From NCBI GenBank assembly GCA_946407635.1, contig CAMJOZ010000001.1, forward strand, positions 2,763 to 66,762: DNA of 64,000 bases, written 5' to 3'. Position numbers and translations under genes: made by a program. The notes below the pieces were generated by a model. That model saw only the letters and a list, made by a program, of their open reading frames with translations. It did no database searches and was not told the origin of the DNA. Below, one piece after another: positions 11,230-38,012 of the stretch (positions are counted from its first letter, which is position 1; the number at the start of each line of letters is the position of its first letter). This DNA comes from an uncultured Bacillales bacterium (GTDB lineage: Bacteria; Bacillota_I; Bacilli_A; Acholeplasmatales; Anaeroplasmataceae).

Positions 11230-11869
11230 TCATAATATCTCTAATATATAAATCACTTGAATCTTCTTCTAATATTTTTAAATACAATTGATTTGCTTCA
11301 ACATTTCTATTAACTCTTTTTATATAGTATTCATCTTTATTAGCTTCTTCATATCCATCAAATTTTAATAATGAAAAAGCATATTTAGATTTAATTACAA
11401 TTTGTTCACCAAGCTTACCTAATTTCATACTTCTTGCAAGCTGATTAATAGATATACTATTATTAATAAAGCTTTCCGCAAAATCAAAATATGAATCATC
11501 TGCTCTATAACCAATAATTAAATCATATTGATTTAAATTAATACTAAAATTATCTATTAAATATTGTCTTGCTTTTTTAGCATTTGGAGTATTTATAGAA
11601 AATAATCTATGCTCAAGTAAAATAGCAATCCAATTTAAAATTGTATATTTTTCACTATTAAGATTTAATATATTCAAATATTCAGTATCAATTTTATAGC
11701 AATTACAAAAGCCATCCTTTAAAGAATTAACAGCCCATTCCTTTGCTAATTCTTTGCTCTCTGTACAGTAAAACCCTAATCCAAAATCATTATTTTTTCT
11801 TCCTTCACCAAAAATAGGTTTTTCTATAATATTGTTAGAGCCATGATATATAGTTATAATTTTTGACAT
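11180..11869 (-). CDS. DUF3990-like protein (possible H-Y-E type ADP-ribosyltransferase fold; putative toxin/effector)
   Basis: 229 aa. The N-terminus ITIYHGSNNIIEKPIFGEGRKNNDFGLGFYCTESKELAKEWA matches the DUF3990 signature as I recall it. It is the first gene of a two-gene operon with its own promoter. Confidence 0.55.
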   Translation of the reverse strand: MSKIITIYHGSNNIIEKPIFGEGRKNNDFGLGFYCTESKELAKEWAVNSLKDGFCNCYKIDTEYLNILNLNSEKYTILNWIAILLEHRLFSINTPNAKKARQYLIDNFSINLNQYDLIIGYRADDSYFDFAESFINNSISINQLARSMKLGKLGEQIVIKSKYAFSLLKFDGYEEANKDEYYIKRVNRNVEANQLYLKILEEDSSDLYIRDIMNGGIKNDDPRIPRNIS

Positions 11870-11891
11870 GTAATCATCACCTTCTAGCTAT

Positions 11892-11920
11892 ATTATATCA
11901 CTATGGTGATACAGTTTCAA
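11892..11920 (-). promoter_or_regulatory. Sigma-A type promoter of the DUF3990 operon with an embedded palindromic operator
   Basis: The minus strand reads TTGAAA-17 nt-TATAAT with a TG extension. The spacer contains the perfect 16-bp palindrome TATCACCATAGTGATA (11896-11911). Confidence 0.65.
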
Positions 11921-11930
11921 ATGTGCAAAT

Positions 11931-11960
11931 AAAAAACACCTCAAATTTGAGGTGTTTTTT
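11931..11960 (-). terminator. Bidirectional rho-independent terminator
   Basis: aaaaaacacctcaaatttgaggtgtttttt. The perfect 18-bp palindrome at 11937-11954 is flanked by A and T runs. Confidence 0.8.
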
Positions 11961-11962
11961 AA

Positions 11963-12382
11963 CTAATTATTATAAATATATTCTGATGGTTTATTCTTAT
12001 TATTCTCGTCTGTTACACCATAAATTAATAGTAAAATACCAATAATTAAAGAACCTAAGAATAATGCTAAAGCACCAATAACAATATATGGTACATTTAC
12101 TTTTGGATTAACAAATACTACAACTAAAGCTGCAACATTAATACCAAAAGGTAAAATACATAATACTCCAGCTACATTAAATAATATTTTAAATAGCTTT
12201 TGAGCAAGCTCAATTTCTTCTGTATCAGTTGGACGTAAAAATCTACCATTATAAGTAACTGACATACCTTCTTTAACCATTTCCTCAACGTCAATAACAT
12301 TTCCAACAACGAAGAACAAAATCATACCAATTAAAGCTAAAATAATACCAATTATTGATAAAATTTTTATTGCTAATTTCAT
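11963..12382 (-). CDS. Small integral membrane protein (4 predicted helices)
   Basis: 139 aa and hydrophobic (MKLAIKILSIIGIILALIGMILFFVVG...). SD AAGGAGGAAA lies upstream. Confidence 0.5.
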   Translation of the reverse strand: MKLAIKILSIIGIILALIGMILFFVVGNVIDVEEMVKEGMSVTYNGRFLRPTDTEEIELAQKLFKILFNVAGVLCILPFGINVAALVVVFVNPKVNVPYIVIGALALFLGSLIIGILLLIYGVTDENNKNKPSEYIYNN

Positions 12383-12463
12383 AATTAATTTCCTCCTTAA
12401 CCAAAAACATTATAAAATATCTAATCATTTAATTCAATAAATATAGATATGTAAATGTTTTAT

Positions 12464-13165
12464 TTAATCTTTTAAAACATACATAATAATACCACCAGCA
12501 ACACTAACATTTAATGATTCAGTATTGTTAAGTGGTATATAAATATTTTTCTTTACTAATTCTTTTACTTTTTGACTCACGCCATTGCCTTCATTACCTA
12601 AAATGATAGCAATTTTATTTTTTTCTTTTATTTCATTTACATCAATACCATTAACTACATCAGTACCATAAATATCATAATCTTTTAAATTTGATATAAA
12701 TTCAACTAAATTAGCATGAATAAAAGATAATTTAAAAATAGCTCCTTGACTTGATCTTATAACCTTATCATTATAAATATCACAACAGCCTTCACCTAAA
12801 ACTATTGTTTCAAAACCAAAAGCTTTTGCGCTTCTCATCAAAGCTCCTAAATTACCTGGATCTTGTACAGCATCTAATATTAATATTTTATTAGATAATT
12901 TATTGTTTTCTAATATTTTACATAAACCTACTTCTGTTGGGATTGTGTCTGTATTAGAAATTTTTTTCATTATCTCTTTAGTTACTTTAATATAACCATC
13001 AATATCATTTACTGAATAAGCTTCAACAAGTAAATTAAGGTTTTTAGCTTCCTTTACTAGGTGTGCTCCTTCTACTATAAATAAACCTTCTTTTTTTCTA
13101 TACTTCGATTGATTTAATTTTAATAATAATTTAATTTTTGGATTATCTAATGATGTAATTTCCAT
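12464..13165 (-). CDS. TrmH/SpoU-family RNA 2'-O-methyltransferase
   Basis: 233 aa. Contains LDAVQDPGNLGALMRSAKAFG, ILGNEGNGVS and SLNVSVAGGIIMY, the SPOUT motifs. Confidence 0.85.
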   Translation of the reverse strand: MEITSLDNPKIKLLLKLNQSKYRKKEGLFIVEGAHLVKEAKNLNLLVEAYSVNDIDGYIKVTKEIMKKISNTDTIPTEVGLCKILENNKLSNKILILDAVQDPGNLGALMRSAKAFGFETIVLGEGCCDIYNDKVIRSSQGAIFKLSFIHANLVEFISNLKDYDIYGTDVVNGIDVNEIKEKNKIAIILGNEGNGVSQKVKELVKKNIYIPLNNTESLNVSVAGGIIMYVLKD

Positions 13166-30030: not shown

Positions 30031-30058
30031 ATTATACCATATAAAAGTATACTGTCAA
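30031..30058 (-). promoter_or_regulatory. Sigma-A type promoter of rpsP
   Basis: The minus strand reads TTGACA (30053-30058), a 16-nt spacer, then TATAAT (30031-30036) with a TGg extension. Confidence 0.65.
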
Positions 30059-30076
30059 GTATTTTTTCTTGACAGA

Positions 30077-30109
30077 ATAAAAACAAAAGATAAGTCAAAT
30101 TTGACTTAT
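30077..30109 (-). terminator. Rho-independent terminator at the end of bioY
   Basis: The perfect palindrome ataagtcaaatttgacttat (30090-30109) includes the bioY stop codon and is followed by CTTTTGTTTTTATT on the minus strand. Confidence 0.75.
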
Positions 30110-30684
30110 TCTTTATTCTTATTTAATTCAATTGAATTATTAAATTCACCAATGTTATTAATAGCTGGTTCTAATCTTATAGCTATTAATGATGCTAAAA
30201 CTACACTTATAGAATCTTTTATAATAAATGGAGTAAATCCTACTTCTAAAACATATAAAATACTTGATGGTTTATCCATATAGAAATTTAAAATTAAATA
30301 CATATAAATTAAACCAACTATATCTATTACAATTAAACCTAATAATGCTTTAGGTATCAACATCCATTTATTTTTATTAAATAAATTAGATCCTGTTACA
30401 AAACTTGATAACATAAATCCAATTATAAAACCAAAAGATGGATAAAAAATATATTGATATCCTCCACCTGTAGAAAATACTGGAATACCTATTAAGCCCA
30501 TAACAATATATGTAAAAAATACTATCAAGGCTTTTTTCCACTTTAAAATCAAACCTATTGAAGCAACAGCGAATGTTTGAAGTGTTAAAAATATTATTCC
30601 AATATTAAATGAAATTTTAGAACATACAATTAATATGGCAAGCATCATTGCCATAATAGTTAAATCCTTAATTTTTATTTTCAT
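30106..30684 (-). CDS. bioY: Biotin transporter S component BioY
   Basis: 192 aa with 6 hydrophobic helices and LTLQTFAV...GYIIGF-like blocks. It overlaps birA by 17 nt. Confidence 0.85.
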   Translation of the reverse strand: MKIKIKDLTIMAMMLAILIVCSKISFNIGIIFLTLQTFAVASIGLILKWKKALIVFFTYIVMGLIGIPVFSTGGGYQYIFYPSFGFIIGFMLSSFVTGSNLFNKNKWMLIPKALLGLIVIDIVGLIYMYLILNFYMDKPSSILYVLEVGFTPFIIKDSISVVLASLIAIRLEPAINNIGEFNNSIELNKNKE

Positions 30685-31375
30685 ATTTTAACAACGATTC
30701 CTTAATATTAATTTCATCTGATGAAACAGTTATTTTACCTTTTAAATTTGATAATACTAAATGTCCATTTAAATCAATATCAACAACCTTATATGTTAAT
30801 CCTTGATAATAAACATCTTTATTAATAATAGTACTATAATCACGATATAGCTTAATTAAATCAGATTTATTTAAATCTAATAATTTATCAAATTCTTCTA
30901 TAATACTATCAATAATTTCAAATTTATCTTTATTTATATTTAAACCAACTCCATATAAAGATGGTTTATCAGTCATATTAATACCTATACCAACAATTGA
31001 AGCTACAAATTTAGAATTAAAAATATCTTCAATTAGAATGCCTGATAATTTTTTATTATTTAAATAAACATCATTAGGCCATTTAATACCAGCTTTAATA
31101 TTATATTTTTTTAATCCTAAACAAATAGCTAAAGGAGCTATAATTGCATAATTCTTATTTTCTTTTAATAAAATAGAGAAAATAATATCATTATTAGAAG
31201 ATTTCCAAATTCTATCATATCTTCCTCTTCCATTTGTTTGTTCTAAAGCAATTAAAATAGACTTATCCTTATAGCTTTTATAATTTTCTTTAAAATAAGT
31301 ATTCGTAGAAGGGATTGTATCAACTAAATAATATTCATATTTCAAATGAGGTCCTTTATTTAGTTTAGTAATCAT
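30668..31375 (-). CDS. birA: Biotin--[acetyl-CoA-carboxylase] ligase, class I (no N-terminal DNA-binding domain)
   Basis: 235 aa. Contains EQTNGRGRYDRIWKS and GIKWPNDVY. The protein starts directly with the catalytic domain. Confidence 0.88.
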   Translation of the reverse strand: MITKLNKGPHLKYEYYLVDTIPSTNTYFKENYKSYKDKSILIALEQTNGRGRYDRIWKSSNNDIIFSILLKENKNYAIIAPLAICLGLKKYNIKAGIKWPNDVYLNNKKLSGILIEDIFNSKFVASIVGIGINMTDKPSLYGVGLNINKDKFEIIDSIIEEFDKLLDLNKSDLIKLYRDYSTIINKDVYYQGLTYKVVDIDLNGHLVLSNLKGKITVSSDEINIKESLLKYENKN

Positions 31376-32280
31376 ATATTCTTTAAAGCCTCAACTGTCT
31401 TATTAAATGATTCAAAATCATTAACAGTATAAATATTTAATTTTCTATCAACTCTTTTAATAAAGCCAGATAAAGCTTTACCAGGACCAACCTCAATAAA
31501 TGTATCTACACCCTTATCAATTAAATATCTAATTGAATCTTCAAAATAAACACTATTATGAATTTGTGCTTCTAATAAATCATAAATAGGTCTTTCATCC
31601 TCTTTACCAGTGTAATTATAAATCATTTTATATTTTGGATTATTAACCTCATATTTATCTAATACTTTTCTTAATTCTTTAGATGCATCATCTAGTAATC
31701 TAGAATGGAAAGCTCCACTTACATTAAGTGGTATTAATTTTAAAGCTCCAAGCTTAGCCATATTTTCAACTGCTAAATCAACACCTTTATTATCACCAGT
31801 GATAACAATTTGTCCAGGACAATTGTAATTAGCAATTTGACATAAGCCCTCTTCTACTTTAATTCCTTCTAAAACTTGTTCTCTTGAAAGTCCAATGACA
31901 GCAACCATCTTAGATGTACCTAAAGGTAATGCATTTTGCATGATTTCACCACGACATTTAACTATTTCTAATACATCATCTAATTTCCAACAATCAGAAA
32001 AAGCAAGGGCACCATATTCACCTAAAGATAAACCACATGTATATTCAGGTTTTATACCACTTTTTTCTAATTCCTTAGCCATAACATATTCAGTTAATAA
32101 AATAGCCTTTTGAGCATAAACAGTTTGATTTAATACTTGATCTTTATCAATAAAGCATAAATCTCTTATTTCTGGATATCTATCATATAATTCTTTAGAT
32201 AATTCTAAATTATCATAAAAATCTTTACCCATTCCTTGATATTGACTGCCTTGGCCTGCAAAACAAAATGCAATTTTCAT
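31372..32280 (-). CDS. fabD: Malonyl-CoA:ACP transacylase
   Basis: 302 aa. Contains FAGQGSQYQGMG, GLSLGEY and VSGAFHS. Confidence 0.93.
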   Translation of the reverse strand: MKIAFCFAGQGSQYQGMGKDFYDNLELSKELYDRYPEIRDLCFIDKDQVLNQTVYAQKAILLTEYVMAKELEKSGIKPEYTCGLSLGEYGALAFSDCWKLDDVLEIVKCRGEIMQNALPLGTSKMVAVIGLSREQVLEGIKVEEGLCQIANYNCPGQIVITGDNKGVDLAVENMAKLGALKLIPLNVSGAFHSRLLDDASKELRKVLDKYEVNNPKYKMIYNYTGKEDERPIYDLLEAQIHNSVYFEDSIRYLIDKGVDTFIEVGPGKALSGFIKRVDRKLNIYTVNDFESFNKTVEALKNI

Positions 32281-33203
32281 TATCTTCCACTTCCAATTTT
32301 TCTATACTTTTCGTATCTATTATTAATTAATTCTTCATCACTTAGCTTTTCAAGCTCATCGATTTTATTAATTAATTTATTTTTTAATTCATTTGCGAAA
32401 TCATTTGATACATATCTAATTCCACCAAGAGGTTCATTTATTATTTCATCAGCGATTCCATAATCCTTTAAATCATGAGATGTTAATTTCATAACATCAC
32501 ATACTTCTGATACAGGAACCTTATCCTTAAATAGTATTGATGTAAATCCTTCAGGTGAAAGTACTGAATATATAGCATTTTCAAACATAAAAACATAATC
32601 AGAAACTGTTAAAGCTAAAGCTCCACCAGAACCACCTTCTGATAATATTATTGCGATAACAGGTGTTTTTAAACTAGAAAATTCTAATAAATTTTGAGCG
32701 ATAGCACGTGCTTGACCACGTTCTTCCGCACCCTTACCAGGATAAGCACCTGATGTATCAACGATTGTAATAATAGGTCTTCTAAATTTTTCAGCTTCTT
32801 TAGCTAATCTTAAGGTTTTTCTAAAACCTTCAGGTGAAGTCATACCAAAATTTCTTTTTAAATTATCATTTAAATTTTCACCCTTAGCTTGAGCTAAGAT
32901 AGTTACAGGCTTATCACCTAAAAAACCTATACCTGAAATAATTGATTGATCATCTGAAAAATATTGATCTCCATGAAGCTCAATAAAATCAGTAATCAAT
33001 TTATCAATTAATTGTTTAGCTCTTATTCTTTTTTCACTTCTAGCAATTAAAACTCTATCCCACGCACTTAAATTAGAATAAGTTTCAATTTTTAATTTTT
33101 TTAATTCTTCTTTAATTTCATTATATCTAGGATCATCACTTTCAAGATTTAATAATTCTTGTTCAAGTGAAGTAATCTTATTTTCATTTTCTGAGAGTAT
33201 CAT
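32280..33203 (-). CDS. accA: Acetyl-CoA carboxylase carboxyltransferase subunit alpha
   Basis: 307 aa. Contains RPIITIVDTSGAYPGKGAEERGQ and GEGGSGGALAL. Confidence 0.93.
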   Translation of the reverse strand: MILSENENKITSLEQELLNLESDDPRYNEIKEELKKLKIETYSNLSAWDRVLIARSEKRIRAKQLIDKLITDFIELHGDQYFSDDQSIISGIGFLGDKPVTILAQAKGENLNDNLKRNFGMTSPEGFRKTLRLAKEAEKFRRPIITIVDTSGAYPGKGAEERGQARAIAQNLLEFSSLKTPVIAIILSEGGSGGALALTVSDYVFMFENAIYSVLSPEGFTSILFKDKVPVSEVCDVMKLTSHDLKDYGIADEIINEPLGGIRYVSNDFANELKNKLINKIDELEKLSDEELINNRYEKYRKIGSGR

Positions 33204-33204
33204 A

Positions 33205-34080
33205 TTACTTATAATTATGAAGTCTTAAGATTGTACTTAAGTTCTTCTTTAAGTCCTTTCTATCAGAAATCATATCAATATAACCTTTTTCAAGTAAGAA
33301 TTCAGCAGTTTGGAATTCCTTTGGTAAAGTTTCTTTGATAGTTCTTTCGATAACTCTTTTTCCAGCAAAGCCTATAAGTGCATTAGGCTCTGATATTGTA
33401 ATATCAGCTAATGATGCAAATGATGCAGATACACCGCCTGTAGTAGGATCTGTCAATACAGCAATATATAAACCCTTTTCTTTATATCTAGCTAAAGCTT
33501 GGCTTGTTTTAGCCATTTGGAATAAGCTTATTACACCCTCTTGCATACGAGCACCACCAGAGCATGTAAAAATGATTAATGGTAGGTTTTCATCAGTTGC
33601 CATTTCGATTAATCTTGTGATTCTTTCACCACAGACACTACCCATAGAACCCATCATAAAGAATGAGTCCATAACACCAACTAAAACCTTAATACCATCA
33701 ATTGTTCCCTTAACACATAAAACAGATTCATCCTCACCTGTTAGCTTTTTGGCAGCCTCAAGCTTTTCTTCATATTCAGGGAAATCAAGATATTTTTCTT
33801 TAATATTCATGAATAATTCTTGATATCCTAAATCCATTAAATCGATAATTCTTTCTTTAGAAGTCAATCTTCCATGATAATTACAATAAGGACAAACCTT
33901 ATGATCTAAAATGAAATTATCTTTTAAAATAAATTTAGTACACTTAGGACATTTAACAATTAAATCATCAGGAATTTCTTTAGGAATAGATGTTTCATAT
34001 CTTTTCCTTAAATTTAATTCCTCTAAGGCTGTATTAAATTCAAGAATTTTCTCTTTTCTTTTATTGAACGAGTCTTGCAT
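33205..34080 (-). CDS. accD: Acetyl-CoA carboxylase carboxyltransferase subunit beta
   Basis: 291 aa. N-terminal Zn ribbon CPKC...CPYC, plus SGGARMQEG. Confidence 0.93.
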   Translation of the reverse strand: MQDSFNKRKEKILEFNTALEELNLRKRYETSIPKEIPDDLIVKCPKCTKFILKDNFILDHKVCPYCNYHGRLTSKERIIDLMDLGYQELFMNIKEKYLDFPEYEEKLEAAKKLTGEDESVLCVKGTIDGIKVLVGVMDSFFMMGSMGSVCGERITRLIEMATDENLPLIIFTCSGGARMQEGVISLFQMAKTSQALARYKEKGLYIAVLTDPTTGGVSASFASLADITISEPNALIGFAGKRVIERTIKETLPKEFQTAEFLLEKGYIDMISDRKDLKKNLSTILRLHNYK

Positions 34081-35428
34081 TCTCCTTCAACTCCTCTATA
34101 AATCCTTCTATAAATGATGTGTCGTAATGACCTAAAATAAATGTTGGATGGTGAAGTAAAACATAATGGAATTCAACTGTAGTTTTAATACCATCAATAA
34201 TTAATTCTTCTAGTGCTTCACGCATCTTTCTTATACATTCAAGTCTTGTTTTTGCAAAACAAATAACCTTTAAAATCATTGAATCATAATAAGGTGGAAT
34301 AACATATCCTGGATATACCGCAGAATCTATTCTTACACCCATTCCTCCAGGAACATGCATAAATGTAATCTTACCTGGATTTGGTCTGAAGTCATTATCC
34401 ATATCCTCTGCGTTAATTCTACATTCAATTGCATAACCAGAAAGCTTAATATCTTCTTGTTTATAAGCTAAAGGTAACCCATAAGCTATTTTAATCATGT
34501 TTTTAACTATATCAACGTTAGTTACAGCTTCAGTAACACAGTGTTCAACTTGAACACGAGTATTCATTTCAATGAAGTAATAATTTTCTTCACCATCAAC
34601 TAAAAATTCAATAGTACCAACACTATCATAGCCTACATATTTACAAGCCTTTAAAGCACTTTGATATAATTTATTTTTAAGATTTTGAGAAATACTAATA
34701 CAAGGAGCTTCCTCAACCATCTTTTGATTTCTTCTTTGTAATGAACAATTTCTTTCAAATAAATGAATACAGTTACCTAATTTATCACACATAATTTGAA
34801 CTTCAATGTGTTTAGGATGACTGATATATTTTTCAATATACAATTCATCATTAGAAAAGAATTTTAAAGCTTCTTCTTTAGCTTCATTAAATAATAATTC
34901 AAATTCATTCTTATTTTCAACTAGACGTATACCTTTTCCGCCACCACCAGCAGATGCTTTAATCAAAACAGGAAATCCTATAGATTCAGCTATTGCTAAA
35001 CCTTCTTCTTTATCAACTGCCTTATATGAACCTGGAACGATAGGAACACCAGCTTCTTTCATTAATCTAATAGCTTCACTTTTGTTACCCATTTTTTCCA
35101 TAACATCTGGATTAGGTCCAATAAATGTTAAACCACAAGTTTCAACCATTCTAGCAAATTGTGGATTTTCAGATAAAAAACCAAAACCTGGATGAATAGC
35201 ATCACATCCAGTTAAACAAGCAGCACTAATAATATTTTCAATATTTAAATAAGAATCTAAACTATTTTTATCGCCAATACATACTGCCTCATTAGCAAGT
35301 TCTCTATGTAAAGCATCCTCATCAGCCTTTGAATATACAGCAACTGTTTCAATACCTAATTCTTTACAAGCTCTAATGATTCTTACAGCAATTTCTCCAC
35401 GATTGGCAATTAATATTTTCTTAAACAT
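34061..35428 (-). CDS. accC: Biotin carboxylase
   Basis: 455 aa. Contains KILIANRGEIAVRI, GGGGKGIR and EMNTRVQVEH. Confidence 0.95.
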   Translation of the reverse strand: MFKKILIANRGEIAVRIIRACKELGIETVAVYSKADEDALHRELANEAVCIGDKNSLDSYLNIENIISAACLTGCDAIHPGFGFLSENPQFARMVETCGLTFIGPNPDVMEKMGNKSEAIRLMKEAGVPIVPGSYKAVDKEEGLAIAESIGFPVLIKASAGGGGKGIRLVENKNEFELLFNEAKEEALKFFSNDELYIEKYISHPKHIEVQIMCDKLGNCIHLFERNCSLQRRNQKMVEEAPCISISQNLKNKLYQSALKACKYVGYDSVGTIEFLVDGEENYYFIEMNTRVQVEHCVTEAVTNVDIVKNMIKIAYGLPLAYKQEDIKLSGYAIECRINAEDMDNDFRPNPGKITFMHVPGGMGVRIDSAVYPGYVIPPYYDSMILKVICFAKTRLECIRKMREALEELIIDGIKTTVEFHYVLLHHPTFILGHYDTSFIEGFIEELKENARLVQ

Positions 35429-35430
35429 AA

Positions 35431-35850
35431 TTAATCACCAATTACAAAAAGCTTCTTACCAAAATCAACCATATCACCATCAGAAGCACAGATTTCTTTT
35501 ACTGTACCTGAATATGATGATGTTATTTCATTCATAACCTTCATGGCTTCAATTATACAAAGCTTATCGCCCTTCTTAACTTTATCTCCAACATTAACAA
35601 AAGGCTTAGCATCCTTATATGGTGCTGAGTGGAATGTACCTACAAGTGGAGATGTAATAACATTACCACTTACTTCTACATTTTCTTCTTTCTTTTCTTC
35701 AGATTTAGCTTCAGTTTTTACTTCTTCTACTAATCTAGCACCACTATTTTTATCTAATTTAATTTTAAATCCATTTTCTTCAATTTCTAAATATGATAAT
35801 TGAGATTCTTCAAGCATATGGATTAGCTTTTCTATTTCTTCAAAATTCAT
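35431..35850 (-). CDS. accB: Biotin carboxyl carrier protein
   Basis: 139 aa with the biotinylation motif IIEAMKVMNEI. Confidence 0.92.
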   Translation of the reverse strand: MNFEEIEKLIHMLEESQLSYLEIEENGFKIKLDKNSGARLVEEVKTEAKSEEKKEENVEVSGNVITSPLVGTFHSAPYKDAKPFVNVGDKVKKGDKLCIIEAMKVMNEITSSYSGTVKEICASDGDMVDFGKKLFVIGD

Positions 35851-35855
35851 CTTAA

Positions 35856-36098
35856 TTAACCTCTTAGCTTTCTATTAACTAGATCAACAACATCTTGGAC
35901 TTTAATTAAGTCTTCCATTTCTTCAATTTGGATATTAATACTAAATTTTTCTTCAAGTTCTAGAATCATTTCTACAGCGTATAATGAATCTATATTTAAA
36001 TCATCTTTTAATATTGAATCAGGAGTAAAATCTGTAGTAACATTAGCACATTCGATTATTAATTTTTTAATATCTTCAAAACTAACTTCTTTTACCAT
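35856..36098 (-). CDS. Acyl carrier protein (ACP-2 of the operon)
   Basis: 80 aa. The phosphopantetheine site DLNIDSLYAVEMILELEEKF follows the DSL-type motif. Its start overlaps the upstream flavoprotein gene by 17 nt. Confidence 0.8.
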   Translation of the reverse strand: MVKEVSFEDIKKLIIECANVTTDFTPDSILKDDLNIDSLYAVEMILELEEKFSINIQIEEMEDLIKVQDVVDLVNRKLRG

Positions 36099-36831
36099 CT
36101 TTTTCCTCCTGCCAAAATTGATCTAAAAATATTTTATAAGCTCCGTCGCTAAATGGTGGTTTAGATAAATTAGATAATGTTTCCTTATCTAAATTACCAT
36201 TTTCCATAAAGCTTTTGCCAGCTTGAGAAAACTTAACTAAAAATCTGTTTAGCTTGTTTTCATTTTTAATATCAACTAATGTTTTTAATTGTGGAACAAA
36301 TATTCCGTAATACCCATCTTTACCACAAATAAAATCAAATTGAGCTTTTACAGAATCATAAACTAAATCAACCTCATTATAAGCACATGATGAAATTACA
36401 ACAAATCTTTTGTTTTCATCATAATATCTTAACCCATGTAATGATTCACCATTCTCTGGTGGTTTATGACCACGATATGTAAGCATCATTGACAAAAGTC
36501 TATCTGTGAATAATTTAAGAATGCCTGGCATACCAAAGAAAAATAATGGAAAGCTTTCAATAATTATATCAGCATTTAATATTTTTTCTTTTACCATTTT
36601 AATATCATCATCTCTGATGATGCATTCACCTTCAGTTCTACCCCAGCAAGATAAACAACCAAGACATGGTTTAAAATTTAATCTTTGAACATTAATGATT
36701 TCTAAATCATAATCTTCATATTCTTTCATGCCCTTTAAAAAAGCATTTGTGACAACCATTGTAGAACTATTTTCACATTTAGGACTTCCGTTAATAACAA
36801 GAACTTTTTTCTTCTTGTTTGAACCCCACAT
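36082..36831 (-). CDS. Flavodoxin-fold NAD(P)H-dependent FMN reductase-like protein with a compact Cys motif (iron-sulfur flavoprotein-like)
   Basis: 249 aa. KVLVINGSPK is a typical FMN-reductase N-terminus. CLGCLSCWGRTEGEC has CX2CX2CX7C spacing like the Isf-type [4Fe-4S] motif. It is embedded between fabZ and an ACP gene. Confidence 0.6.
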   Translation of the reverse strand: MWGSNKKKKVLVINGSPKCENSSTMVVTNAFLKGMKEYEDYDLEIINVQRLNFKPCLGCLSCWGRTEGECIIRDDDIKMVKEKILNADIIIESFPLFFFGMPGILKLFTDRLLSMMLTYRGHKPPENGESLHGLRYYDENKRFVVISSCAYNEVDLVYDSVKAQFDFICGKDGYYGIFVPQLKTLVDIKNENKLNRFLVKFSQAGKSFMENGNLDKETLSNLSKPPFSDGAYKIFLDQFWQEEKDGKRS

Positions 36832-36840
36832 AAAATCACC

Positions 36841-37287
36841 CTATCTACTATAAATAGTTTTTCTATCTACCTTAGTAAAAGTTAAAGTACCCTTTGAATA
36901 AACATTACCATCAACTAAAACCTTACAATCAAATGATGTAAGAGGTCCTAAAACCTTTGACTTGTTTACCTGTAATTCTAATATATCTCCAGGAATAACA
37001 GCCTTAACAAATTTAAAGTTATCAACCTTTAATAACACATAAATATTTTCTTCATCAGTTCCATCAGCTTCAAAAACTAATGAACATAATTGAGCACAAG
37101 ACTCAACAATTAATACACCTGGCATAATTGGAGAGCCAGGGAAATGACCCATAAAATATGGTTCATTTACAGAAACACATTTTCTTCCAATTGCACTTTC
37201 ATTTGGTACAATTTCTAAAACTCTATCAATCATTTGAAATGGTGGACGTTGTTTAATCTTTTCATTGATTTCATCAATTAAAATCAT
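36841..37287 (-). CDS. fabZ: 3-hydroxyacyl-ACP dehydratase FabZ
   Basis: 148 aa. Contains PPFQMIDRV and GHFPGSPIMPGVLIVESCAQL. Confidence 0.92.
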   Translation of the reverse strand: MILIDEINEKIKQRPPFQMIDRVLEIVPNESAIGRKCVSVNEPYFMGHFPGSPIMPGVLIVESCAQLCSLVFEADGTDEENIYVLLKVDNFKFVKAVIPGDILELQVNKSKVLGPLTSFDCKVLVDGNVYSKGTLTFTKVDRKTIYSR

Positions 37288-38012
37288 AGTGATAAACCTC
37301 CATCAATTGTAATGATTTCACCTGTAATATAATTTGCTTTGTCAGATGCTAGGAAAGAAACTAAATTAGCAACATCAGTAGCATTACCTAGCTTATGAGT
37401 TGGAATAACCTTTAAGTATTCTTCTTTCTTTTCTTCAGGAATAGCATTAAGCATTTCAGTTTCAATAAAACCAGGAGCAACAGCATTAACTCTAATACCA
37501 TAGCCACCTAATTCTTTAGCTAAAGTTCTTGTTAATTGATTAACAGCACCCTTAGTTGCACTATAAACTGCTTGACCAGGAAGTGAAAATTTACCACTTA
37601 CAGAAGACATATTAATAATTACGCCTTTTTTCTTTCTAAACATCTTCATAGCACAAGCTTGAGCACAATAAACATAGCCCTTAACATTTAATTCAAAACA
37701 CTCATCTAAGTTTTTCTTAGTAAGCATTAATAAATATTCATCTCTAACTATACCTGCATTATTAACTAACACATCAATTTGGCCATATGTTTTATAAACA
37801 TCTTTAACCATTTGATTAACTTCTTCTTGGTTTGAAACGTCAGCCTTATAAATCATTCCGTCTCCACCTTTAGATTTAATTAATTCTAAAACATCTTGTG
37901 CTTTAGCTTCATTATGTGAAAAGTTAATAACAACTGTATAACCATCTTCTGCTAATTTAATAGCGCATGCTCTACCAATACCACTAGAAGCACCTGTAAC
38001 AATAGCAATCAT
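37284..38012 (-). CDS. fabG: 3-oxoacyl-ACP reductase (SDR)
   Basis: 242 aa. Contains TGASSGIG, NNAG and the S...YSATK catalytic residues. Confidence 0.88.
   Translation of the reverse strand: MIAIVTGASSGIGRACAIKLAEDGYTVVINFSHNEAKAQDVLELIKSKGGDGMIYKADVSNQEEVNQMVKDVYKTYGQIDVLVNNAGIVRDEYLLMLTKKNLDECFELNVKGYVYCAQACAMKMFRKKKGVIINMSSVSGKFSLPGQAVYSATKGAVNQLTRTLAKELGGYGIRVNAVAPGFIETEMLNAIPEEKKEEYLKVIPTHKLGNATDVANLVSFLASDKANYITGEIITIDGGLSL

Follow-up and report, generated by a model that had tools for sequence, protein, structure and literature searches.

A flavoprotein gene in a fatty-acid synthesis operon

The 64,000-nucleotide stretch analysed here (the window; part of contig CAMJOZ010000001.1 of an uncultured bacterium of the Anaeroplasmataceae) carries a 13-gene minus-strand operon for type II fatty-acid synthesis (FAS), in which a flavoprotein gene, here called FLAV, is a candidate for the enoyl-acyl carrier protein (ACP) reductase (ER). 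The genes run in the order ACP, KS-KS (a ketosynthase didomain), FabG, FabZ, FLAV, ACP, AccBCDA (acetyl-CoA carboxylase, ACC), FabD, BirA and BioY (Table 1). FabG is the sole short-chain dehydrogenase/reductase (SDR) of the operon and FLAV the sole other oxidoreductase; the FabL model gives FabG 198 bits, under its cutoff of 328. None of FabI, FabK, FabL and FabV is encoded among the operon genes, confirming the empty ER slot described in the first-pass annotation of this DNA. FabH is likewise missing from the operon, and no FabA/FabM-type isomerase is evident in it by Pfam and NCBIfam.

The open reading frame (ORF) proposed in that annotation exists; its strand, left unstated there, is minus. 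Its gene spacing also held. The fabZ stop codon (36843-36841) is followed by GGTGATTTT and then by the FLAV ATG at 36831, which leaves a 9-nucleotide spacer and makes the ATG the tenth nucleotide past the stop, as claimed. ACP2 starts at 36098, giving the reported 17-nucleotide overlap with the 3′ end of FLAV. FLAV is translationally coupled to both FabZ and ACP2.

The two halves of the KS-KS protein differ in their active sites. The FabF-like N-terminal half retains Cys/His/His, while the C-terminal half is KS-like without the catalytic Cys, reading TVTNGNQSG here and TVTNGxQSG in the family consensus; by this sequence it looks like a chain-length-factor partner. More than 150 loci conserve this didomain. 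As the operon has no FabH, priming may proceed via malonyl-ACP decarboxylation. At its 3′ end the operon encodes the biotin ligase BirA and the biotin transporter BioY, which places biotin supply in one transcript with ACC, and the hairpin just past BioY is likely the operon end. BioY is placed differently in some relatives, directly after FLAV in L044, L054, L055 and L081 and upstream on the opposite strand in L017, L038 and L040. The window has a GC content of 28%, and part of it is 100% identical to the JGI metagenome contig Ga0247611_10005670 (L092). Its nearest named relatives are rumen Acholeplasmatales metagenome-assembled genomes (MAGs) and Anaeroplasma bactoclasticum, which makes an uncultured Anaeroplasma-like bacterium its probable source.

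Linkage of FLAV to fatty-acid clusters in other genomes

Scanning one genome per species (GTDB r232) returned 440 FLAV relatives, and the best 80 of these 440 were analysed using the operon proteins of the window as tblastn queries. A fab cluster surrounds FLAV in 80 of these 80 loci. The didomain KS is visible in 78 of them, and the remaining two contigs are truncated. In the reverse direction, a metagenome scan with the KS C-terminal domain as query yielded 80 loci, including L092. In 25 of these the sequence beyond the 3′ end of the KS gene is too short for a judgement; FLAV is present in 50 of the 55 informative loci. The co-occurrence of FLAV with the didomain KS, which the first-pass annotation had proposed as a check, is therefore strong both ways.

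The clusters differ in architecture (Table 1). Type A keeps the gene order of the window, and in A. bactoclasticum ATCC 27112 its FLAV is 77% identical to the window protein. In type B, FLAV comes after AccA, and PlsX lies directly 3′ of it in Lachnospira eligens as well as in 27 of the 30 type-B metagenome loci. The minimal type-D cluster of L171 has PlsC upstream and TetR and patatin genes downstream, and in L086 an acyl-ACP thioesterase follows FLAV. Even members only ~40-45% identical to the window protein remain cluster-bound: P0123 and P0296 belong to type B with patatin and PlsC upstream, P0296 having an acyl-ACP thioesterase downstream too. In all, six distant members beyond the 80 loci show linkage to a fab cluster. 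The conserved core across these rearranged architectures is ACP, KS, the ketoreductase (KR) FabG, the dehydratase (DH) FabZ and FLAV, and thus an elongation cycle with FLAV in the ER position. The two ACP genes of the window are distinct, ACP1 lying upstream of KS-KS and ACP2 right after FLAV; clusters of types B, C and D retain ACP1 alone.

Two unusual arrangements were seen. L075 encodes a second, divergent paralogue (11800-12486, minus strand; 228 residues, 36% identity, motif CIGCFECWRTLDGRC) just downstream of FLAV-PlsX on the opposite strand, without the conserved Y119/H132/R135/C149/Y151 set. P0122 (390 residues) is an apparent AccA-FLAV fusion without the N-terminal 68 residues of FLAV, which hold the FMN loop and the Cys motif. 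A deletion or an assembly error in a type-B cluster, where AccA precedes FLAV, probably accounts for it, and we did not use it as Rosetta-stone evidence.

Canonical ERs were searched for by tblastn with Streptococcus pneumoniae FabK (from the PDB 2Z6I alignment) and Escherichia coli FabI (from NC_000913.3), covering the window plus 83 loci (1.4 Mb) and then the 80 metagenome loci. No FabK homologue was detected in the 64-kb window or the 163 related loci (~2.5 Mb), and the same DNA contains no FabI-like genes besides the clusters' own FabG and one stray SDR (L076). For FabV, Pfam analysis of ten window ORFs, eight of them FabV-sized, gave no match, no FabV sequence having been used as query. 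Of the FabI/K/L/V absence that the first-pass annotation had made part of its check, what stands is the absence from the window and ~2.5 Mb of flanks, with FabV covered by Pfam in the window.

Table 1. Positions of the features in the window (top) and composition of the related gene clusters (bottom).
Feature	Position or loci	Strand	Basis or description
FLAV, candidate enoyl-ACP reductase	36082..36831	minus	ORF, ATG start, 249 residues; predicted flavodoxin-fold FMN protein
Cys motif CLGCLSCWGRTEGEC, putative [4Fe-4S] ligands	36622..36666	minus	codons C56-L-G-C59-L-S-C62-W-G-R-T-E-G-E-C70
Putative FMN-phosphate loop after strand β1	36778..36792	minus	codons N14-G-S-P-K18
Promoter-like site upstream of ACP1	40800..40827	minus	TTGACA-16-TAAAAT with TG; consensus match only
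ACP1	40498..40740	minus	Pfam PP-binding
KS-KS didomain, 796 residues	38022..40412	minus	two ketoacyl-synt + Ketoacyl-synt_C pairs; TIGR03150 514 bits
FabG-type 3-oxoacyl-ACP reductase	37284..38012	minus	TIGR01830 270 bits
FabZ, 3-hydroxyacyl-ACP dehydratase	36841..37287	minus	NCBIfam NF000582 133 bits, above cutoff 113
Shine-Dalgarno-like GGTGA between fabZ stop and FLAV ATG	36836..36840	minus	read from sequence
ACP2	35856..36098	minus	PP-binding and acyl carrier protein models
AccB	35431..35850	minus	ORF; order conserved in relatives, Pfam labels there
AccC	34061..35428	minus	ORF; order conserved in relatives, Pfam labels there
AccD	33205..34080	minus	ORF; order conserved in relatives, Pfam labels there
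AccA	32280..33203	minus	ORF; order conserved in relatives, Pfam labels there
FabD, malonyl-CoA:ACP transacylase	31372..32280	minus	Pfam Acyl_transf_1
BirA	30668..31375	minus	ORF; Pfam BPL_LplA_LipB in homologous locus L081
BioY, last gene	30106..30684	minus	ORF; Pfam BioY in homologous locus L081
Terminator-like hairpin just past BioY	30052..30075	minus	consensus match only
Type A	~41 loci		window gene order, FabZ-FLAV-ACP2-Acc; Acholeplasmatales MAGs, Anaeroplasma bactoclasticum ATCC 27112, 'Ca. Enterosoma', Clostridium sp. CAG:307
Type B	37 loci		ACP1-KSKS-FabG-FabZ-FabD-AccD-AccA-FLAV; Lachnospira eligens, Eubacterium spp., Christensenellales-like, other Clostridia
Type C	L088, L090		PlsC-ACP-KSKS-FabG-FabZ-PPTase (phosphopantetheinyl transferase)-FLAV
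Type D, minimal	L089, L171		ACP-KSKS-FabG-FabZ-FLAV
Type E	L087 6422-11871; L172 4588-9630		(TetR-SCP2-)PlsC-AMP-binding-ACP-FLAV-DegV(-DegV)
Fibrobacter-like clusters	L160 8708-14653; L162 5527-11713; L166 8382-13922		ACP-KSKS-FabG-FabZ-(FLAV)-PlsC-patatin

Fold, cysteine motif and closest known proteins

The FLAV translation begins with MWGSNKKKKVLVINGSPK and includes the segments KPCLGCLSCWGRTEGECIIRDDD and KPCLGCLSCWGRTEGEC. It matches the Pfam families Flavodoxin_2 (2.6e-17) and FMN_red (2.7e-14; FMN stands for flavin mononucleotide). The best NCBIfam match is NF007280, NAD(P)H oxidoreductase, with 33 bits against a cutoff of 162; FLAV is not above the cutoff of any named NQO or azoreductase subfamily in NCBIfam, and no model in the Pfam and NCBIfam copies used (dated 2025 and June 2026) names its family. 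Protein homologues reach E 1e-166, with relatives labelled in databases merely as 'flavodoxin family protein' or 'multimeric flavodoxin WrbA'.

An AlphaFold2 model computed from a 29-sequence alignment (predicted local distance difference test 89, predicted template-modelling score 0.88) has a flavodoxin-like α/β core followed by C-terminal helices (residues 191-246), the Cys loop (~55-75) being its lowest-confidence internal part. Foldseek comparison with the PDB returned FMN azoreductases, indigo reductase, NQO1/NQO2 and the flavone reductase 7D38 at E ~1e-8 and template-modelling (TM) scores of 0.48-0.57. The predicted fold is that of FMN two-electron reductases such as azoreductase, NQO1/2 and the flavone reductase (FLR), in agreement with the first-pass description of a flavodoxin-fold, FMN-reductase-like protein.

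The Cys motif spans residues 56-70 with the spacing CX2CX2CX7C (C56, C59, C62 and C70). These four cysteines and a fifth, C149, are invariant in 29 of 29 aligned homologues with 52-81% identity, and a C..C..C(3-15)C motif occurs in 260 of the 269 family members retrieved; the nine members without it are mostly short or lack the N-terminal part. Judged by this conservation, the motif is no chance occurrence. N14, S16 and P17 are invariant in the same 29-homologue alignment, and P226, F227, Y232 and W240 within the FAS-linked set.

The spacing lies within the range CX2CX2CX5-7C published for iron-sulfur flavoproteins (Isf), where the motif is said to ligate a [4Fe-4S] cluster (PMC3164229), so the likeness pointed out in the first-pass annotation is borne out. 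Like the Methanosarcina thermophila prototype of Isf, FLAV is a flavodoxin-like FMN protein by prediction, and its motif follows strand β2 in the secondary structure of the AlphaFold2 model. In contrast to Isf proteins, which are redox-active proteins of anaerobes (PMC3164229) described as general redox proteins and not as FAS operon members, the FLAV family has a conserved C-terminal region in addition and carries the broader signature CxGCxxCWxxTPGxC. No entry named Isf was found among the PDB sequence matches of FLAV at E≤10. A tentative Methanosarcina Isf sequence matched no PDB Isf entry, with FLR again as its best match, and was discarded as evidence.

Among solved structures, the closest in sequence is FLR of Flavonifractor plautii (PDB 7D38/7D39), with E 1.1e-8 by phmmer and 1.1e-10 by profile search; Foldseek gives E 4.7e-8 and a TM score of 0.48 against 7D38. 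As an FMN ene-reductase, FLR saturates the C2-C3 double bond of flavones: reduced FMN donates a hydride to the β-carbon, and the α-carbon takes up a proton. Its authors regarded it as a hitherto undescribed class of ene-reductase (Yang et al., Nat Commun 2021, PMC7862272). An ER performs this same chemistry, reducing a double bond conjugated to a carbonyl. Both proteins share a flavodoxin/WrbA-like fold, with FMN at the dimer interface in FLR. The N14-K18 loop of FLAV aligns with the FMN-phosphate-binding loop of FLR, and its invariant D110 with FLR Asp103, which touches the FMN of the partner subunit (PMC7862272). The alignment spans residues ~9-112 only, Cys region included. There, at FLR residues ~45-70, FLR carries CX2CX2CX11C, compared with CX2CX2CX7C in FLAV. 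A term search of the FLR paper turned up neither cysteines nor an Fe-S cluster ascribed to the enzyme (PMC7862272), and FLR may be an Fe-S protein studied without its cluster. The two proteins appear to differ at the C-terminus: the long FLR 'tail' forms the flavonoid pocket in trans and is essential for activity (PMC7862272), whereas FLAV, 61 residues shorter (249 vs 310), has a conserved C-terminal helical region that does not align with FLR in sequence. FLR also acts on free flavones, without a link to ACP or fab genes.

Other enzymes resemble FLAV in function or in fold. FabK, usually found within Firmicute fab clusters, is an FMN enzyme that reduces enoyl-ACP, the function proposed here for FLAV, but has the unrelated TIM-barrel fold of the NMO family, and FLAV does not match the FabK/NMO Pfam family. 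Nor does it contain an adh_short or enoyl-reductase Pfam domain, in contrast to the SDR Rossmann fold of FabI, FabL and FabV. FabX of Helicobacter pylori combines FMN with a [4Fe-4S] cluster and acts at C2-C3 of acyl-ACP (Zhou et al. 2021, as cited in PMC11091888); it has a FabK/NMO-like fold and works in the oxidative direction with isomerisation, not as an elongation-cycle reductase. Azoreductases, NQO1 and NQO2 are the best Foldseek matches (TM 0.5-0.57) and share the top Pfam family, but lack the Cys motif, are only 13-20% identical to FLAV and have no ACP or fab linkage. ACP phosphodiesterase, the old 'AcpD' label attached to PDB 1TIK/1T5B among the matches, was rejected as an identity for FLAV, since 'AcpD' is a historical misannotation of azoreductase.

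To our knowledge, ERs have the SDR fold (FabI/L/V, InhA), the TIM-barrel fold (FabK, the ER of fungal FAS) or the medium-chain dehydrogenase/reductase fold (type I FAS and polyketide synthases, mitochondrial ER), and for the fatty-acid ER step of bacteria we know only of SDR-type (FabI/L/V) and TIM-barrel (FabK) enzymes. This agrees with the first-pass statement that no known ER family has the fold of FLAV. No description of a flavodoxin-fold or Isf-like ER was found by full-text searches of the openly accessible literature. As a non-orthologous ER candidate, FLAV would bring to type II FAS a fold so far unknown in this role.

FLAV belongs to a large family. Searched exhaustively, 1.84 billion representative proteins gave 5,658 matches at E≤1e-3 and 73 at E≤1e-30, with the signature CxGCxxCWxxTPGxC in nearly all of the top-150 representatives listed; more than 5,000 uncharacterised flavodoxin-fold proteins make up this family, P0137, P0153, P0159, P0152, P0167 and P0124 among them. 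Some paralogues are fused to SCP2 or GDSL-lipase domains, pointing by domain content to lipid substrates in the wider family. Many others are 530-590 residues long, and their ~300-residue C-terminal domain has no match in Pfam, NCBIfam or the PDB. In a neighbour-joining tree the FAS-linked clade stands apart from both the fusion proteins and the long paralogues. Residues K106, D110, R111, Y119, H132, R135, C149 and Y151 are conserved in FAS-linked, type-E and most outgroup members, and this shared set suggests one shared chemistry on lipid-like substrates.

A candidate enoyl-ACP reductase and its alternatives

We favour, with a little better than even confidence, the reading that FLAV is the ER of an unusual type II FAS and a non-orthologous replacement of FabI, FabK, FabL and FabV. 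We do so because the operon provides ACP, KS, KR, DH, malonyl-CoA:ACP transacylase, ACC, BirA and BioY and no ER, because the linkage of FLAV survives rearrangement of the cluster architecture and because FLR, its closest solved relative, carries out an ER-like C=C reduction. Precedents for its cofactors come from FabK as an FMN-dependent ER and FabX as an FMN and [4Fe-4S] enzyme on acyl-ACP. Wherever the surroundings of FLAV were examined in detail, an ACP gene lies close by, in many cases together with a PlsC-type acyltransferase; this presence of ACP fits an enzyme acting on acyl-ACP.

FLAV would then be a flavodoxin-fold FMN enzyme, probably dimeric and probably also carrying a [4Fe-4S] cluster. 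Reduced FMN would give a hydride to C3 of trans-2-enoyl-ACP, and C2 would be protonated by a conserved residue near the flavin, for which C149, Y151, Y119 and H132 are candidates. The Isf-type four-Cys loop would hold the cluster and pass on electrons to FMN, with reduced ferredoxin or flavodoxin as the most plausible donors in these strict anaerobes; alternatively, NAD(P)H could reduce FMN directly in a ping-pong manner as in NQO1 and azoreductases. The acidic ACP could be docked by the conserved basic residues K106, R111 and R135. KS-KS, FabG, FabZ and FLAV would make up a complete elongation cycle, with the product acyl-ACP going to PlsX or PlsC. FMN together with a [4Fe-4S] cluster and an active-site acid is also the arrangement of 2,4-dienoyl-CoA reductase and dihydropyrimidine dehydrogenase.

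Several observations weigh against an ER function. The absence of canonical ERs covers only the window and ~2.5 Mb of flanks, and ER genes are often unlinked to fab operons, as is E. coli fabI. AccB and AccC are not near the type-B clusters, which means that other lipid genes do lie elsewhere in those genomes. The similarity to FLR is limited to about the first 110 residues of FLAV, and a simple NAD(P)H-dependent ER needs no Fe-S cluster. In addition, five informative didomain-KS loci lack FLAV, four of them Fibrobacter-like and one Firmicute-like. The four (L160, L164, L166 and L168) have the order ACP-KSKS-FabG-FabZ-PlsC-patatin and GC contents of 0.49-0.55, and a Fib_succ_major protein encoded in L166 indicates Fibrobacter; the fifth, L153, appears rearranged after FabD. 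The KS-KS proteins of L160 and L162 are 91% identical, yet only L162 has FLAV, between FabZ and PlsC. FLAV is therefore dispensable in some lineages. In L160, a PIN-domain gene also separates FabG from FabZ. FLAV-less clusters would fit an ER supplied by a housekeeping enzyme. Finally, two members of a 236-residue sister subclade (P0295, P0283) occur in type-E loci without KS, KR or DH within 8-9 kb and keep the same conserved residues as FAS-linked FLAV. The 5′ end of FLAV overlaps the ACP gene in L172. The AMP-binding gene of these loci resembles an acyl-ACP synthetase, and the whole looks like a module for activation or incorporation of exogenous fatty acids that includes the flavoprotein. 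An ER has no obvious job there, unless the cycle enzymes are encoded elsewhere.

These loci lend weight to a different ACP-dependent role in acyl-chain redox chemistry, with the true ER elsewhere in the genome, which we consider unlikely. FLAV could be a FabX-like dehydrogenase/isomerase making unsaturated fatty acids anaerobically, or it could saturate conjugated C=C bonds of externally loaded acyl-ACP chains. Such a role would suit a protein that in the contexts examined in detail has ACP nearby, often PlsC and, as type E illustrates, not always KS, and that some KS-KS clusters can dispense with. The operon has no evident FabA/FabM-type isomerase, and FabX sets a precedent for FMN and [4Fe-4S] acting on acyl-ACP. 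However, this would leave the ER step without an enzyme in compact and otherwise full operons, the minimal module of KS, KR, DH and FLAV equals the needs of an elongation cycle, and FLR, the closest characterised relative, reduces a C=C bond and does not form one. Less probable again is that the cluster serves a specialised lipid or polyketide-like pathway with FLAV as a tailoring reductase, bulk fatty acids coming from a canonical type II FAS elsewhere. Types C, D and F have their own ACP, PPTase, PlsC-like acyltransferase and patatin with no FabD or Acc, the catalytic Cys is missing from the KS partner domain, as it is in chain-length-factor and aryl-polyene systems, the dehydratase also gives ApeI-like matches, and Fibrobacter, being Gram-negative, presumably has a normal type II FAS. 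Against this, type A contains AccBCDA, FabD, BirA and BioY in small low-GC Acholeplasmatales genomes and type B contains FabD, AccDA and PlsX, a content typical of primary lipid synthesis; even in a specialised pathway FLAV would most likely still be an enoyl reductase, working on the dedicated ACP.

We give slightly less credence still to an Isf-like electron-transfer or oxygen/peroxide-detoxifying flavoprotein that does not act on the acyl chain and would instead shield or feed electrons to another component, for example an oxygen-sensitive enzyme. The compact Isf-type Cys motif and the flavodoxin fold are in keeping with such a role, as Isf is redox-active in anaerobes (PMC3164229). Yet no electron-needing partner is conserved in the clusters, which have neither a FabK-like nor a radical enzyme, and a stress protein is unlikely to stay with KS, KR and DH over at least four architectures and two phylum-level groups. 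The conserved C-terminal helices together with H132, R135, C149 and Y151 further suggest a defined substrate pocket. Among the four options offered in the first-pass annotation, a new ER class is accordingly the best supported, while a desaturase or dehydrogenase and a redox partner are less probable.

In its widest form, the ER function of FLAV would define a fifth structural class of bacterial ER, a proposal that we advance tentatively and at somewhat less than even confidence. This flavodoxin-fold FMN/[4Fe-4S] class, possibly driven by ferredoxin and not by NAD(P)H, would serve Acholeplasmatales/Anaeroplasma and many gut Clostridia (e.g. Lachnospira eligens) as their only ER and would work with a FabH-less KS-KS synthase, and the thousands of uncharacterised CxGCxxCWxxTPGxC flavoproteins, SCP2 and lipase fusions among them, would form a broad family of lipid ene-reductases. 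The ER step sets the pace of bacterial fatty-acid synthesis and is the one most often targeted by drugs (triclosan, isoniazid, afabicin, FabK inhibitors). If FLAV is an ER, this would explain the incomplete-looking fatty-acid synthesis annotations of Acholeplasmatales, RF39-like bacteria and several abundant gut Clostridia, and it would predict that these commensals are intrinsically insensitive to FabI and FabK inhibitors. It could also tie fatty-acid synthesis to the ferredoxin pool in anaerobes, and would give an initial lead on the function of more than 5,000 unannotated 'flavodoxin family' proteins.

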